This document shows positions 8,901 through 64,000 of a stretch of DNA of 64,000 nt, one piece after another. Each line of letters opens with the position of its first letter. Position 1 is the stretch's first letter. The translations under genes and the position numbers were made by a program. Below the pieces are notes generated by a model. The model made no database searches and was not told the origin of the DNA. It saw only the letters and a program-made list of their open reading frames with translations. Source of the stretch: Octopus sinensis (lineage: Eukaryota). The stretch is from assembly GCF_006345805.1 (NCBI RefSeq), contig NC_042998.1:74772001-74836000 (forward strand), in the 5' to 3' direction.

Positions 8901-10829
8901 TTTACACAAAACTTACAAGTATTTGGTAATTCAAACATAATAATTTAAAGTATCGTCTAAAAGCTTGGCTTTATTTTAATTTTTTACTTTGGTTATCTGG
9001 CACGAACTACAACAGAGTCACTTGAAATCCAAGTGATAGCAAACCCCCATTTAACAAGAAGCGCACATAAGCTGTGTTGCAATCTGCTCTGTTCAAAGTA
9101 GCAACAACTTCATTTGATGATATAATATAGATCAATTTAGTGTAACGACTCCTTACATTTCAGGTTTGGTGCCAAATTATATCAGAAAAAATCATGTCAT
9201 ATTTCCAGCATATTTCTAACGATCATGCGAACACTACTTTAGTGAACTGGGTGCAAGAAAAAATCTCCGATTTTGCAGTGTGCGCAAATCAAAGAAAACT
9301 CTTCCAACCAGTACATTGGCATACTAGTAATCGTAGCTAAATTCTCCTCGACTCACACCAATAACTTTTTAAAAGGAACAACATATTAGATAATATGATC
9401 CCACAGACACTAGAAAAATGCAATGAGATAGTAATGGTTGGAACAACTTTGAAAAGAAGTTTCCTTGATCAGGGTTGATGCTAGCTTAAACAATACTAAC
9501 AATAACTGCAGTTAGTAATTAATTATACGACACAAAACGTGTCACTAGAGAACTGAATATGCAGACCTGGTAATGTTAACACGCATATATACACTAATGC
9601 AAGGTATGTTAAAACACCAGAGGTGATTCTAGAATTTCTTAAACTATAAAAAAGTCTCATCTGACAATTTCAGGTCTCCTCCTGGACCACTGGATAGACA
9701 TTCCAACTGCGGACACAGAAGAACTTTTGATGATACATGAATGAATTAAGTTGCAAGAAATGCTAAATTATTTAGTGGAGTGACGATAGAAAGATTTTAG
9801 TACCAAAGGGACGTGTTAAACAGAATATTTACGTGTTTAGAAAAGTGCAAGCTTGGCATCTAGCGAACATATAATTCCAATGAAAAGGAAACTGCTAAAT
9901 AAAAGAGAGATAAAAACCGAGAAAGAAGCGTAACGAGGCCAAGCTTACTTTATGAATGAATTCTCATTGCAGTACTCTCATTGACAGAAATTCAATGCAA
10001 CGTTTGTTGTTTTATGATTATAGCTAAAGCGTGGGACTTACTCTTTAAATTATGAAAACAAAATTACTTAACAGCTTGATGTAATTCACAAGACAACCTG
10101 TCATCAGTCCTCGACGATTGCCACTATCTGAAAATATATTACTACTTTACATAAACTAAACTTCTATCAGTACGTGCAGCGGCAGTTTTAGCATTTATTA
10201 GCATTTATTAGTATGACTAACGGATAACTGATTAAACAATTTTAGTTGATTTTATTAAATATGTTAGTATTGATTCAACCATTAGCATTAATCACCTTAA
10301 TGTTTTATAAAGTTTCACTTTTTGTGAAGAACTACGACCATAGGACTGTAAAGGTTATGTATACTGAATTTTGATTATAGAAGCTATTCTACATATTCAG
10401 AATTTGAACATAGGCATATGTAGCATTTTATATCTAATGGAGAAACTAGAATTGTCGCATGTATATGTAATACAGTTTAGTTAGTCTCAATTTAGATCTG
10501 CTATTTCAGTCGTTTGTAGAGTGATTTCAAACACATGTAGCTGAGTGCCATAACATGCAGTTTCCAGGTCCAAAGGATTAGGATTGGCAATAAATTCAGA
10601 TCACCTATAGGGAAAAGCATTGCTGACACATCTTAATAAAGATGTATGAACGAATAATTATTTCGTGCAATAACACATAAAGCTGTTAAATTCACTTACA
10701 AAATTTTGATTTAAACTTTAAATTAAAGTTTATTACATTAGGTGTACTACTTCGTCGAATGTATGAATAATTTTCTGTGAATGAAAACCACAACCTAACT
10801 GGAATGGTTATTTTTTATTCACTTTTTAG

Positions 10830-18908: not shown

Positions 18909-19042
18909 ACATATATATGCACACATATACATACATATTTATTTATGTATAAGTATATATATGTTTATGTATATATACACATATATAAATACACGGGTGT
19001 GTATGATCATGTATAGAAGAATATATTACTCAAAGAATTTCC

Positions 19043-20720
19043 GGTTAAACTAAAGCGTTACACCATTCAAAGAAACAAAAAAATGTGTGTAATAGGTGTA
19101 AAACAACTTCCTCTGAACGAATATGAAAAAAAATGCGCGCACCCGAAAGGGGAGTGGGGAGAGGCCTCGGAAAATTTACAACGGGAATTTCCGATAGCGT
19201 CTGACCCGGGCGCAAAAACAAAAACAAAAATAGCGTAATAGGTGTAAAACAACTTGCTCTAAATGAATATGACAAAAAATGCGCACTCGCGAAAGAGGGG
19301 TGGGGCAGAGGCCTCGGAAAATTTACATCGGGAATTTCCGAAAGCGTCTGACCCGGGCACAAAACCAAAAACAAAAATAGCGCAATAGGTGTAAAACAAC
19401 TTGCTCTAAACGACTATGATGAAAGAAATGCGCGCTCACGAAAGGGGGCGTGGGGGAGAGGCTTCGGAAAGTTCACATCTTCAGGGTCGATAGTATATAG
19501 CGATTCTTGGGCTGCGTATAACTCTCTTGGAAATCTCGGCTATACCCTCTTCCGCATCAACCACAGTGAAAATTTTGTTGATCCTACAAACGCGTCGGTG
19601 CACACACAGGTGATAGAGAGATTGTGGGGGTCAGTTAAGAGATCAGTTGTTCGCCCAGGCATTCTTGCCTGTTACTTAAAGCAATACCTCGCCAAGTTCC
19701 TATTTATGGAAAGCATCAAACCTGCTGCCAAGAGAATACACGTATTCTTATTGGCAGTAGCAAGTCTTCATCCTGGCCCGAGATAATTTTTTCCTCCAAA
19801 CGCAACCCATCTCATTTCTTTATCATCACTGTCGATGGACCACTCAAAGAGGTATGTATACATTATCATTTTCGTAATATAATTTCTGTAAAATTTCAAG
19901 ATGTTTCTGACACGTATTTTGATTCACATGGCGAAGATCCAACATTTCTTCACTTTTTCCAGAATTTCTTCTCTTTATTTTTCTTTTTTGCGAAATATGT
20001 ACAAAAATACGGAGTTTATGATTCATGAGTGAGTGTGTGTTCTTGATAATCGTTTAGAACAAGTAGTTTTACACCAATTACACTATTTTTTCTTAGTTTA
20101 AAGGCCGTGGACTGAAGATGTGAAATTTCCGAAGCCTCTCCCCACCCCCTTTCGTGAGCGCGCATTTTTTTCATCATATTCGTTTAGAGCAAGTTGTTTT
20201 ACACCTATTACGCTATTTTTGTTTTTGTTTTTGTGCCCGGGTCAGACGCTTTCGGAAATTCCCGATGTAAATTTTCCGAGGCCTCTCCCCCACCCCTCTT
20301 TCGCGAGTGCGCATTTTGTTTTTGTCATATTCGTTTAGAGCAAATTGTTTTACACATATTACACTATTTTTTGTTTGTTTTGGTGCCCAGGTCAGCCCCT
20401 CCGACGCTTTAGGAAATTCCCGATGTGAATTTTCCGAGGCCTCTCCCCACCCCTCTTTCGCGAGTGCGCATTTTGTTTTTGTCATATTCGTTTAGAGCAA
20501 ATTGTTTTACACATATTACACTATTTTTTGTTTGTTTTGGTGCCCAGGTCAGCCCCTCCGACGCTTTAGGAAATTCCCGATGTGAATTTTCCGAGGCCTC
20601 TCCTCCACTCCCCTTTCGCGTGCGCGCATTTGTTTTCATATTCGTTCAGAGGAAGTTGTTTTACACCTATTACACACATTTTTTTTGTTTCTTTGAATGG
20701 TGTAGTGCTTTAGTTTAACC
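19043..20720 (+). mobile_element. Internally deleted Merlin (IS1595/IS1016-like) DNA transposon with long compound TIRs
   Basis: Termini GGTTAAACTAAAGC...GCTTTAGTTTAACC. 8-bp TSD gaatttcc / gaaattcc. TIRs at about 19043-19484 and 20111-20720 are built of about 150-bp tandem units. Confidence 0.9.
19481..19786 (+). pseudogene. C-terminal half of a Merlin/IS1595-family DDE transposase
   Basis: Open frame SGSIVYSDSWAAYNSLGNLGYTLFRINHSENFVDPTNASVHTQVIERLWGSVKR, matching IxSDxWxAY..NHS..FVDP..HTQxIExxW. The N-terminus and first catalytic Asp are missing. Confidence 0.9.
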
Positions 20721-20845
20721 GAAATTCCAACTTTGATTTTCACGCTTTATTTACAATCTTATAATAATATAACATAATATAATATAATATAATATAATAT
20801 AATATAATATAATGAAATTGTAGAATATTAAATGTCCATTCTGAT

Positions 20846-28915: not shown

Positions 28916-30004
28916 TATACATTACTAAATACATACAATACAAATGCTGAGACAGGTAACTGAGACAGTTTACATATGAAATCTCAGATTAAATTTCGAA
29001 TATAAAGCATTAAGAGAAAACCAGCCAAGATCAACAAACCGCAAACTATACTTCTAAGCATCAATACAACTAATAAATTACAATGATAACAATGACAACT
29101 TTAAACTTCCATAAACTGTTATATTGGTTATACAAGTAAAATTTTATTCCTTCTTTTGATCATATATTTACAAGGATCCATCTCACAACAAAATCGACAG
29201 ACAGCCAAAAGTTTACAACACTACTATTTAATATAGAATTACACCAAAAAATTAGGAGAGTAACTGAGGCAGGTGTGTCATGAGGTAAATGTAGGCCAAA
29301 ATCAATGCACACATAAAACACACAAAAGAAACAACTAGACTTTGAGAAAATTAACTCATTCTCAAGCTAAAGTCCAAATAAAATTACACCAAAGTGCCAC
29401 ACACAAAAAAGTTTATTTTCTTTCTTCCACTTACACTAGCTCTATACATATATGCGTGGCGTGCGTATATGCACATGTCTATGTATATAGGTAGAGAGAT
29501 ACTAATGTGCATATGTGTATATATAAGTATGAGATTATACAGATAAACATAGGTGTGATTTATTAATATACTTCTATATTAGCACTTGGTCTCGATATTT
29601 GTTATATGCAATACAGTTCATATCTAGTTTAAATGGAAAGAACCTAATATCTATAGAGGTGAGCAACAAGAAGAAAGTACCTAAAATGCCTTATGTTTAT
29701 ACATTGAGAATGGGGTATATATTTACTTAATTTCAACCTCCTGGTAAGTGTGGGAGATAATAATAAAATAGAAGAAAAAATTGAAGATTATAGAGAAAAA
29801 AAACGTAAGTGAAAAAGAGATCTGACAACGAGAATATAAGCTGTAAACGGATAAAAGAACGGAATCTGGAAGCAACTCTCGACAACCAATGTCAACAGGT
29901 CAAACAACATGTATAGAACAGAAGCATATGCCTGAAAGAAGAAAAAAAAGCACCGAGGTCAAAAACAAGTTTTCATTAACTAAATTTCAAACAGTTTCAA
30001 TGGA

Positions 30005-30172
30005 ACTGTTTCAGTGACTAGGTAGCAGCGAAGCGTGATAAAAATTGACACCTTAACAAATAAATGAAAAGTGAATTTTACAGAATTTGTGTGAGTTTAT
30101 AGATAGCCAACATGACTTTTCCACGATGTAATTGTTTCAGTTCCTAGACACGGTCTCAGATCAAGTCACTTG
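30005..30172 (+). mobile_element. Older copy of the short hammerhead-bearing element at 35678-35860
   Basis: tcaGTGACTAggtagc..gc..gataaaaattgaca...ccacgatgtaattgtttc.ttcc..acacggtctcagatcaagtcact aligns with the reverse complement of 35680-35846. Confidence 0.7.
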
Positions 30173-30229
30173 AAAGACAAGTACCTCTCTGAGATGTGTG
30201 CGCGCGTGTGCGTGCATGTAGGTGCGCTC

Positions 30230-34560: not shown

Positions 34561-35677
34561 GTTTATTGACAATTTTGTCTTTTTTTCGGCATATTTGGCA
34601 TTAGAATTTTTCTTTTGCCTTATTTTGTAAATTATTTATAAATTTAACCTTTAAAGGTATTTTTTGATATGCTGGCCATTGATAACATTTTTTTCTCGAA
34701 AAAAATTTTATCCTACATTAGTTATATGTATATATATATATATATGTAAGTATGTATGTATGTATATGTATGCATGTATATATGTATGTATATATGTATG
34801 CGTACGTAGTCTAAAGCATTTCTACACTTGCATAAATATTGATGTTTGTAGTGCAGGGTGTAAGGGTCGATGAATATAGATGTGTCTTAATTCTCCATTA
34901 TGTTAATCTATAAAGAAGTATATTATATATCAACGACATAAGAATACGCGAATAAATGGCAAACGAAAGAAGTGGTTACCGGAAACATTTTACCGCTCAC
35001 ATCGTCTACAACTTCCGATTGCATAATCATCTCTTATAAAATCTTTCTCTGTTGATAGTACAGACAGCTTCAATTCAGCGACAAAATATTGCCACTAGAG
35101 TATTTGGAGACCTCTCTAGCATAAATTACGTCTCACATTATACAAATAAATAAACACACACACACACACACATACATACATACATACATACATACATACA
35201 TACATACATACATACATACACACGCACATGCTTTCATACATATGTCCATAAAGGCACACTCACATATAAATCGCAAATTGGGAACTATCATTTTGAAACA
35301 TGGTGCAGCAACCACATGACTACGTTCGAGTTCTAAATTCATTTAAGGATGGTTATATTTCTTTATTCGTTCCTTAATTTTAATCCGGAACATTAGCGCT
35401 CTTCAATCCATTATCCTATTATCGTTTCGAAGCTGTCTCAGCTATATGCTTATAATTGTATGCTGTCGTGTTTTGACCCGTTGTGCGTTGGGTCACAAAC
35501 TCACTGTTAAAATATATTACGAAAACATCAAAATGTAAAACATTCTCATTATCACAAAACCAATCAAGATCAACAAACCACCGAATGTACTTCAAAGCAC
35601 TCTTGCAAATTATAAGTTACATTGCAAATATTACAGCTTTAAACATTAATCAAAATTACGGAGATGTACTTGCATAG

Positions 35678-35860
35678 CTAGTGACTTGATCTGAGATCGT
35701 GTGCTGGAACGAAAACTATTGCAGCGTGGAAGGTGTTTATAAGCCATTTAAGAAACACACAAAACCGTTAGATTCACTTCAACATATAAATTTAATTTGT
35801 CAAAATATTTTCGTCGCTTTGAGACCGCGACCTGTTCACTGACAAAGCTTCGTGCTGCAT
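35678..35860 (-). mobile_element. Short dispersed element (Penelope pLTR-like) carrying a variant hammerhead
   Basis: A second copy lies at 30005-30172; the hammerhead is at the 5' end on the minus strand. Confidence 0.65.
35796..35846 (-). ncRNA. Type I hammerhead with a compensatory G3:C8 core
   Basis: Reverse complement: tttgtca-GTGAACA-g-gtcgc ggtctcaaa gcgac-GAA-AATATT-T-tgacaaa. Perfect 7-bp stem I, 5-bp stem II, palindromic stem III. Confidence 0.75.
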
Positions 35861-37350
35861 CTCTTTGTTGTTGTTGTATTAATCAAAATGTTTTACAAGT
35901 ACAAATTTTTCCTTCGTTTGACCATACACTTGCAAGTGAATCCATCTCACTAAAATGCAGTATATGGAACAAAATGACAGACAATCAATTGTAATCAACA
36001 CTACGGTTTAACATAGAATTCTACAAAATAAAGTTAAGAGAGTATGTATGGAGGATTTGCTAAGAGAAAAATATAAGCCAAAAAATCAACACAAGTAGAA
36101 ACAGGGAAGTAACAATTGGACGTTGAGAAAATTCTAAATCTGGTGTTGGAAAGAATTTTAAAATCACAAACATTCACAAGATCGTTTGTGACCCAACACA
36201 AATGGTGTGACCATGCGAGAATCATTTTATTTAAAAAAGATCTCAGATGATATAGAAATGCCAACGAACTAACGGGTTTCTGAATATTAATGGACAAAAC
36301 TGAACATAATGGACTAAAGGGGAATTTATGCAAGAGAAAAAACGTTCACATTTGAACATAGTTATGCTGTTTTCTTTTAATCCAACACACACATGTGTAC
36401 ATATATACAGGAGCACTTGCATAGTATCTATGCTACCGTTATGTTCTGTATTTAATGAATGAGAAAGTTCAACGTCACCTCCCTTTTCTTCTTTTGTGCA
36501 GACATATAGTTGTCAGGGAGTGTACTTTTTATTGCTTTCGATAGTATTAATAGCATAAATGCGTCTGTGCTTGTGACTATGCTAAAAACGGAGCACAAAT
36601 CTGATACGGCTATTACAAACAATGTAATAAAGACAGCCTCTTGTGGCACCCCACTGTGAATAATTTACTCTTCACTGCTAACACCTGTGGTCTTAACAAC
36701 TCAATTGCTTCTAAGAATCCAATTTTACGGAGGTTACAAAGTTTGCGGCGTATTGTCATGTGATCACATCGATGGGAACATTTGCACAAAATCAGATTGG
36801 TTGAGTAGCCGCTGTAAAATCGCATCTAGACATAATGCTACAGTGACTACGAGACGGCTTCTACTTGAAAGAAAACTAAATTGGTATCAGCAATTATTTT
36901 CTTCTAGGAAAATAATTACGTCCGGGTTATTCTTCATGTGGTTTTGCAGCTATATAGGTTGATATATATGAAGACATATAAAGTTTTAGATCTATGCACC
37001 TCCTCTGCAAATAGTACATATGTCTCAGTTCCGGTATTCGATGACTTTACCATTTTCACAAAAGTCTTGAGAAAACAAATAAAATGATTTAACAAGGGTT
37101 ATATATATGTTAATAGAAGAATTATTGAGATGCCTTTACAGACCTTCCTGAATTTATGCTAATTCTATGGTAAATTTTCATCAATTTCTTGTGTTCTTTC
37201 GTAGCTGATGGTTGAAACCTCTCTGTATTAGGTTGTAGTGCAGAATAATTCTGCTCAGATATATGTTTGTGGACCAGAGATTGGTTTCATAACTTCTGCA
37301 AATCAGGTTTGCATAATTGTACTCTCTGTCTCCCTCCATCTCCCCGGCTG

Positions 37351-63039: not shown

Positions 63040-63712
63040 GCACTTTGTCAGAAACTTGGAAACGACATGCTGTACTACTTGGCATTCGCGGCGGAAGCTC
63101 CAGTACGAGCATTTCAGAGTATTTGGGAGTCAATCCGAGGAGAGTGCAGAGGATTTGGAAAGAGTTGGATGAATCGAGTTGTGATTACGATGGTACGACA
63201 GCTCGGAAAACTCACTGTGATCGTTCTAGTAACCAAAGAACTCCTGAATATTTTGGTGAGATCCAGGCTATGATTGACAACGGTCCCTCCAAGTCAATCA
63301 GGTCCATCGCCAGGAACATAGAAGTGTCTGTTTCCTATCATACGAGGTGAGACATGGCCAAGTTTTATCCCAAGCCATCAAAGGCAAGAGGAAAGACCGC
63401 GCTAAGAAACTTTTGAACAAAGTTAAGCTTACCCTCCACCTGAACATGCTTTGGTTCTCCCAAGACCAGATGGTGAACACACAGAACAACCGTTGGCCAG
63501 CAGTGTCCGCAAAACATGTACCGATAGTGATAAAAATCAAACATCCAGTGAACATCATGGTGTTTGGAGTGATCACTAGTGATGACGACGTTATACTTCC
63601 ATTCATCTTCCCATATGGCCTCAGACTCAACACGGAGGCCTACATCAAGTACCTGGAGGAGGCAGTGCTGCTTCCTAGCAAGAGGGTGGCTGCCGGAAGA
63701 CCCTATGTCTTT
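63040..63712 (+). mobile_element. Frameshifted maT-like Tc1/mariner transposase pseudogene (N-terminal and central part)
   Basis: HTH-like ISEYLGVNPRRVQRIWK; PSKSIRSIARNIEVS; QNNRW..KHPVNIMVFGVITSDDDVILPFIFPYGLRLNTEAYIKYLE..AAGRPYV. Confidence 0.85.
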
Positions 63713-64000
63713 GGTGACATTTTTGCGATGTCTTTGCAGCTTTAACAATAAAGCATATTACCCTGCCTCCAGTATTCGAGTACTATTTTCCCCACCTTGT
63801 TTCACATTTATGTGCTTACTCTAGTATAGATAGATATACAAATAAATACATACACACATACATACATTCATGCATATATACACACATATACATACACAAA
63901 CATATGTAGGTACTAATTTAGTTTCCCATATAACTATACTATAAGCTTCCTTTTATATCTTCAGACTTCTCCTAGTTGCCTGGCTCAGGAATTTCATTAA

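Follow-up and report, generated by a model that had tools for sequence, protein, structure and literature searches.

A short repeat in the genome of Octopus sinensis carries a hammerhead-like fold in which the core residues C3 and G8 have exchanged places, raising the question of whether this is one decayed copy or the inherited state of a retroelement family, and of whether such a core would still cut RNA. The window, a stretch of 64,000 nucleotides of contig NC_042998.1, contains the motif exactly as a preliminary description had written it, on the minus strand, which that description left unstated (Table 1). A plus-strand reading was rejected, as it involved no hammerhead and a weaker fold.

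Table 1. Features of the insertion, its hammerhead-like fold and the older copy in the window.
Feature	Position	Strand	Basis
5'-truncated copy of pLTR (3' end), Penelope-like family A, 207 bp	35657..35863	-	similarity to L171, mapped ends
Target-site duplication, left copy, 12 bp	35645..35656	.	
Target-site duplication, right copy, 12 bp	35878..35889	.	
14 extra AC-rich bases at 5' junction, likely non-templated	35864..35877	-	absent from other copies
Penelope-type 'tail' of about 55-60 nt separating the two alternative 3' ends; probable overlap with first ORF codons	35657..35717	-	
Minimal type I hammerhead fold, G3:C8 core	35796..35846	-	sequence reading, descriptor scan, fold
Core positions 3-9, GUGAACA (G3 = 35839, C8 = 35834)	35833..35839	-	sequence and genomic matches
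Stem I, 7 bp	35846-35840 paired with 35802-35796	-	
Unpaired G between core and stem II	35832	-	
Stem II, 5 bp, 9-nt loop, G10.1-C11.1 first	35831-35827/35817-35813	-	
G12-A14 (GAA)	35812-35810	-	
Helix III, palindrome AAUAUU; predicted to form between two copies	35804..35809	-	palindromic in 7/8 lineages
U17	35803	-	
Predicted cleavage site after U17, UUU triplet	35802..35803	-	inferred from hammerhead numbering
Decayed copy of older subfamily, core 30014-30020 G3...U8	30001..30189	+	

The motif was the sole match in the window to a descriptor accepting any Watson-Crick pair at 3:8, which dinucleotide shuffles matched in 0 of 150 cases at the stringency of this fold; under the loosest of the settings, 10 of 150 matched. 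Its fold z-score was -2.0, the Rfam hammerhead families gave no covariance-model match at E <= 10 in 35600-36000, and the best 150 of 200 Rfam matches were all repeat-driven and included no hammerhead. The features shared with the minimal hammerheads (min-HHR) of Penelope-like elements (PLEs) include a Watson-Crick 3:8 pair (G:C in the window, C:G and U:A in relatives), all of the catalytic positions U4, G5, A6, A9, G12, A13, A14, A15.1-U16.1 and H17, the unpaired base between 9 and 10.1, the G10.1-C11.1 pair, the palindromic helix III and the location in the pLTR of a Penelope-like element. The literal min-HHR core, C3-U-G-A-N-G8-A, is replaced by one with G3 and C8 both in the window and in 80 of the first 100 genomic matches listed, and the motif was therefore classed as a variant rather than as a plain min-HHR member. 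The initial statement that every helix is perfect holds for stems I and II, but not for helix III in the monomer, where the palindrome could pair only between two copies. In energy modelling, closing helix III in the monomer costs energy (-7.0 kcal/mol closed versus -12.4 open), while a double-hammerhead dimer at -25.4 is about equal to two monomers (2 x -12.4) and an alternative dimer at -30.6 is more stable, so that the modelling appears neutral on the double-hammerhead dimer, speaking neither for nor against it.

The exchanged pair is the state of a whole family, here called family A, and not of one decayed copy. A pattern that specified the sequence on either side of the core, and left the core itself free, found 5,871 exact matches in the genome versus 16 for a reversed control; among the first 100 matches listed, 80 had the exact core and none combined C3 with G8 (by eye). 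An older subfamily, identified by means of the old copy in the window and approximately 70-80% identical to it, gave 73 matches against 1 for the control, with G3 and C8 together in 40 of the 73 and G at position 8 in none (by eye), G3 and C8 being the commonest letters. The two subfamilies have different residues at position 7, different loops II and palindromes of different length (4 nt in the older copy L240, 6 nt in the young form), and the catalytic positions listed above are intact in family A across both. The presence of G3:C8 in the young family as well as the older subfamily indicates that it is old and stable in this lineage. In this genome the proposed consensus check for GTGANCA came out as foreseen, as did the expectation that searches for CUGANGA would overlook the motif: a descriptor tied to the canonical core passes over 5,871 motifs or more. 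The older copy at 30008-30050, which had been cited for its tca-GTGA start, does have G3, but it reads U8 rather than C8 and its helices are decayed.

The repeat that carries the motif is part of a much larger element. Over 152 nt the window copy matches the 3' end of an ORF-bearing copy (L171) at 91% identity, and copies of the family are 95-98% identical over a 201-bp query. The ORF of family A is a 722-aa open frame containing RT and C-terminal GIY-YIG-type endonuclease motifs, read from the frame itself, as in the single ORF of EN+ PLEs; the family A protein matched no Pfam family, and its homologues (E < 1e-120) gave a weak match to RVT_1 and a match to GIY-YIG above the cut-off. The CX2-5CxxC linker and CCHH endonuclease motif of Neptune and Nematis were also present (by eye in translation), suggesting by the linker motif that the element may be of Neptune or Nematis type. 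The sole named close protein match was a predicted protein of Octopus vulgaris, which falls inside a sister family, family B, on an RT tree of the relatives recovered here, in keeping with the cephalopod host that the preliminary description had in mind.

In all five family A ORF loci the motif follows the ORF at a distance of about 900 nt (918 nt from the ORF end in L171), and the loop type seen in the window is linked to the ORF in L249 and L244/L275. Two loci, L274 and L275, are direct tandems of motif, ORF and motif, spanning 4.36 and 5.7 kb, in which the motif thus also stands before the ORF, and in L174 the tail continues in frame into the ORF. Copies ended at the distal 3' end in 25 of 47 cases, about 55-60 nt earlier in 17 and elsewhere in 5 (by eye), the 47 copies following genome order through the first 40 places listed for the flank pattern and being sampled with a pattern that required the core. 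At the 5' side of many copies stands a second, truncated copy in inverted orientation, and such inverted 5' copies and alternative 3' ends are described as Penelope-like hallmarks in the accessible text of PMC8557442 and PMC11167929. Partial direct tandems forming pLTRs, an inverted 5'-truncated copy, an optional tail and a target duplication of variable length, as expected of EN+ PLEs, were all found. From the linkage of motif and ORF, the tandems and the tail running into the ORF it follows that the window copy is what is left, after strong 5' truncation, of the pLTR end of an EN+ Penelope-like element that is autonomous. The G3:C8 retroelement family that had been suspected therefore exists, as the terminal repeat of an autonomous element with RT and GIY-YIG domains and not as a stand-alone small element. 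A MITE or Helitron reading, suggested by 6-bp end complementarity, was dropped, given target duplications of varying length and a unit that is the end of an RT ORF element. Full-length copies starting at the cleavage site were likewise rejected, five of six pLTRs that run into the ORF keeping the whole motif.

Several other sequences were recorded at these loci. Just 5' of the motif (L002, L061-L090) is a branch-point-like and acceptor-like stretch with 449 exact matches, which ends where most short copies begin, is preceded by microsatellite-rich sequence and resembles a pLTR intron as in Drosophila virilis Penelope; no spliced junction of this stretch was found in DNA or among the 15 of 54 RNA-read joints listed. 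Upstream of a family A copy, on the minus strand of the oriented copy L091, is a 493-aa RT-like frame with motifs recalling Naiad-type Penelope RT, which we take to be an unrelated RT. In the window, the insertion interrupts one copy of a second dispersed repeat (35547-36133), another copy of which is present in empty form at 29008-29352, and a 43-bp fragment at 10672-10714 (plus strand) is 79% like the middle of the element. The window also includes an ISXO2-like (Merlin/IS1595-type) DDE transposase fragment at 19352-19786 (plus strand; Pfam PF12762, E 1e-11), which sits within inverted and tandem repeats at about 19035-20727, and an open frame at 63278-63745 (plus strand) that by eye is like a decayed Tc1/mariner transposase fragment, with no Pfam match.

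Two sister families in the same genome carry the motif with other core pairs. Family B, 55-57% identical to family A in amino acids, has a C3:G8 hammerhead 420-550 nt behind the ORF (for example at oriented position 6394 of L177) and 3,512 matches; among the first 100 listed, 75 had C for A9 and 16 were fully canonical (by eye). Family C, at 48-55% amino acid identity, has U3:A8 behind a Penelope-like ORF (for example L252 and L185) and 5,259 matches, of which 78 of the first 100 listed were exact (by eye). Both cores were confirmed with patterns leaving the core free. One scan of metagenome contigs yielded 11 relatives, of which 8 were examined, L271-L273 being left out because their matches ended far before the ORF end. 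The motif was located just behind the ORF in five of the eight (three by script, two by eye), with C3:G8 in L263, L265 and L269 and U3:A8 in L264 and L266, and was not seen in the other three. The hammerhead-like motifs of L263 (4880-5050) and L269 (2180-2400) lie at loci that both appear to continue into a tandem ORF copy.

Position 3 and position 8 formed a Watson-Crick pair in all eight lineages (families A, B and C and the five metagenome relatives), with three pair types, and dealing the position-8 letters at random produced all-paired sets in 363 of 100,000 trials of this partner shuffle; both values overstate the case, since one finder required a 3:8 pair and another rewarded one, the choice of L263 and L269 was made by eye, and the eight lineages share ancestry. 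Across the same lineages 76 of 80 helix cells were paired, involving many compensatory changes, G10.1-C11.1 was present in eight of eight and helix III was palindromic in seven. The Watson-Crick 3:8 pairs and paired helix cells support homology well, and by position and anatomy the window motif is almost certainly homologous to the canonical C3:G8 hammerheads of related elements. In a quick RT tree, disregarding L250 (a long branch, with 15 stops read as X), family A grouped with the pair of families B and C at supports of 100 and 99, followed by L265 and L263, both C3:G8, at 91 and 83. On the simplest reading C3:G8 was ancestral, G3:C8 in family A and U3:A8 in family C being derived; the ancestor may instead have had U3:A8, and under either ancestor both positions changed.

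Other core changes in the clade are uncompensated, namely C9, which arose independently in most family B copies and in L264, and A5 in L269. The 15.1-16.1 pair is altered as well, being inverted to U15.1-A16.1 in L263 and replaced by G15.1-C16.1 in L269. These uncompensated changes suggest that constraint on catalysis may be loose in the clade, and C9 in family B may represent another core variant not yet described, or else may indicate that activity has been lost.

Published work bears on what the exchanged pair would do. In the active fold C3 and G8 pair and residue 8 acts through its 2'-OH, and a nearly dead G8C mutant is partly restored by C3G (accessible text of PMC8495972); in a PLE hammerhead the C3G/G8C double mutant partly cleaves while both single mutants are dead (PMC11167929, accessible text). 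These sources bear out the earlier premise that a 3-8 Watson-Crick pair belongs to the active fold and that swapping it partly rescues cleavage. The G3-C8 variant is more active when residue 17 is not C, according to a statement in PMC3884650 whose data are not shown there, and family A has U17. Minimal PLE hammerheads cleave weakly as dimers and show no cleavage as monomers (PMC4209133), and the element of Anolis could insert in vitro without cleavage, with no read ends falling at the cleavage site (PMC11167929), as far as the available portions of these papers report.

The evolution of the family A core would have involved two changes, most simply from C3:G8, that turned another Watson-Crick pair into G3:C8 and together kept the 3-8 pair, which would continue to position the 2'-OH of residue 8. 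A double hammerhead would form when both pLTR copies of one tandem transcript, which in L274 are separated by 4.36 kb, or two separate transcripts pair through the palindromic helix III and swap helix I strands, and the RNA would be cut slowly after U17 in the paired copies. Cleavage would trim the precursor RNA, yet be dispensable for some insertions, since the genomic copies seen came from RNA intact across the site, either uncut or religated, as for the Anolis element. We regard it as probable that the fold is a minimal hammerhead with a swapped G3:C8 pair in a PLE terminal repeat, cutting slowly after U17 on helix III pairing; taken by itself, activity of the family A motif is predicted with rather better than even expectation, and any cleavage would probably be weak and dimer-dependent. 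The broader proposal, that G3:C8 is a naturally selected, active third hammerhead core and that this genome holds a three-way covariation series (G:C, C:G and U:A) in three sister families of thousands of copies each, is offered tentatively, at a little under even expectation. No RNA data set was listed as containing the element. Three raw RNA runs from a related organism covered both element strands equally with no pile-up of ends, in a library type that cannot show cleavage, and the reads mostly continued into unlike sequence, being largely read-through of dispersed copies.

The strongest alternative is that the fold descends from a hammerhead but no longer cuts usefully, and has been kept as a structural signal for protein binding, template handling or RNA dimerisation, the 3:8 pair persisting for shape or by luck. 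It would account for the uncompensated core changes in family B, L264, L263 and L269, and for the success of family B, which has spread to 3,512 matches although 75 of the first 100 listed carry C9, and it agrees with reports of PLE insertion in vitro without need of cleavage (accessible text of PMC11167929) and of very low activity in minimal PLE hammerheads (likewise for PMC4209133). Sampled copies also keep both sides of the cleavage site, though the pattern used to sample them required the core. A purely structural role fits less well with the integrity of all other catalytic positions in the young and old subfamilies of family A, and with the Watson-Crick 3:8 pair in every lineage that has the motif, and we consider it unlikely.

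The boundaries of the short copies invite a different explanation, in which the 207-bp unit would be a non-autonomous element of its own, retrozyme- or SINE-like and perhaps derived from a spliced or internally started RNA, borrowing the PLE protein and passing through a ribozyme-dependent circular intermediate. The starts of most sampled copies cluster within about 10 nt of a single point immediately 5' of helix I, 24 of the 53 copies without the upstream intron-like stretch start with GAG at that point, and the two ends of the unit share 6 bp of complementarity. Non-LTR retrozymes are non-coding units in head-to-tail tandems, without an ORF of their own. The present unit is instead the end of an ORF-bearing element, its neighbours are inverted rather than tandem, and the same sequence forms the pLTR of ORF-bearing copies. 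The ends of the unit do not match the cleavage site, head-to-tail arrays of the short unit were absent from the loci examined, and neither DNA nor the 15 of 54 RNA-read joints listed contained a spliced junction, making this explanation highly improbable. Chance resemblance, in which a hairpin-rich repeat happens to fit a loose hammerhead descriptor, could draw on the missing Rfam match and the z-score of -2.0, but is already refuted by the shuffles (0 of 150) and by related elements that carry canonical hammerheads at this very position, every helix showing compensatory changes, and retains next to no probability.

The minimal hammerhead with a swapped pair has its closest counterparts in other PLEs. 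As in the min-HHR of PLEs (Cervera and de la Pena 2014, PMC4209133, in its accessible text), the fold is of type I, lies in the pLTR, and has an unpaired base between 9 and 10.1, a G10.1-C11.1 pair and a palindromic helix III, with U17 allowed and mostly dispersed 5'-truncated copies; the same source describes a U3-A8 variant family in Schistosoma. Unlike these hammerheads, family A has a G3:C8 core, G3 being found in none of the 56 representatives of Fig. S3 of that paper, and a longer helix I (7 bp), and cephalopods are absent from its list as accessible. Poseidon of Anolis carolinensis (PAc; Frangieh et al. 2024, PMC11167929) also has a hammerhead in the pLTR near the ORF start and two 3' ends with the tail between them inside the ORF start. 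G3:C8 in that system is a laboratory double mutant, whereas it is the natural family state in family A; the tail is about 55-60 nt in family A versus 30-40 in PAc, and the family A protein has a CX3CxxC linker, which Penelope and Poseidon are without. Neptune and Nematis EN+ PLEs (Craig et al. 2021, PMC8557442, accessible text) share with family A the order of RT and C-terminal GIY-YIG, the CX2-5CxxC linker, partial tandems, inverted 5'-truncated copies and (TA)n-rich targets, but the family A hammerhead is non-canonical and would escape the 'cuganga' descriptor of that study. Natural core variants (Perreault et al. 2011, PMC3088659) include 3:8 covariation (U3:A8), with activity retained in a published variant; those described in the accessible text have U3:A8, A6C, insertions or U15.1-A16.1, and G3:C8 is not named there.

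The family A core is likely a new natural version of self-cutting RNA, to judge from its thousands of copies and from the C3:G8 or U3:A8 pair that sister elements have at this spot. No hammerhead study of cephalopod elements was found in the literature searched. The broadest survey of PLE hammerhead variants is reportedly that of Lunse et al. 2017. No natural G3:C8 hammerhead was found in the literature searched, which included the accessible text of PMC6765202, PMC6155905 and PMC7151607 and whose scope ended short of Lunse et al. 2017, Przybilski and Hammann 2007, Arkhipova et al. 2017 and Martick and Scott 2006.

The cleavage of PLE hammerheads is weak, and in vitro it was dispensable, which bears on why PLEs keep them. 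Two transversions that together restore a tertiary pair of the core would hardly become fixed unless the active fold were under selection, so that family A, next to its C3:G8, U3:A8 and C9 sisters, provides a natural panel for asking whether catalysis is what is conserved. The family also lends support from evolution to the pairing of residues 3 and 8 in the active structure. If G3:C8 is active and selected, searches would have overlooked swapped cores as a rule, and such cores may exist in some of the retroelement families now held to have no ribozyme.
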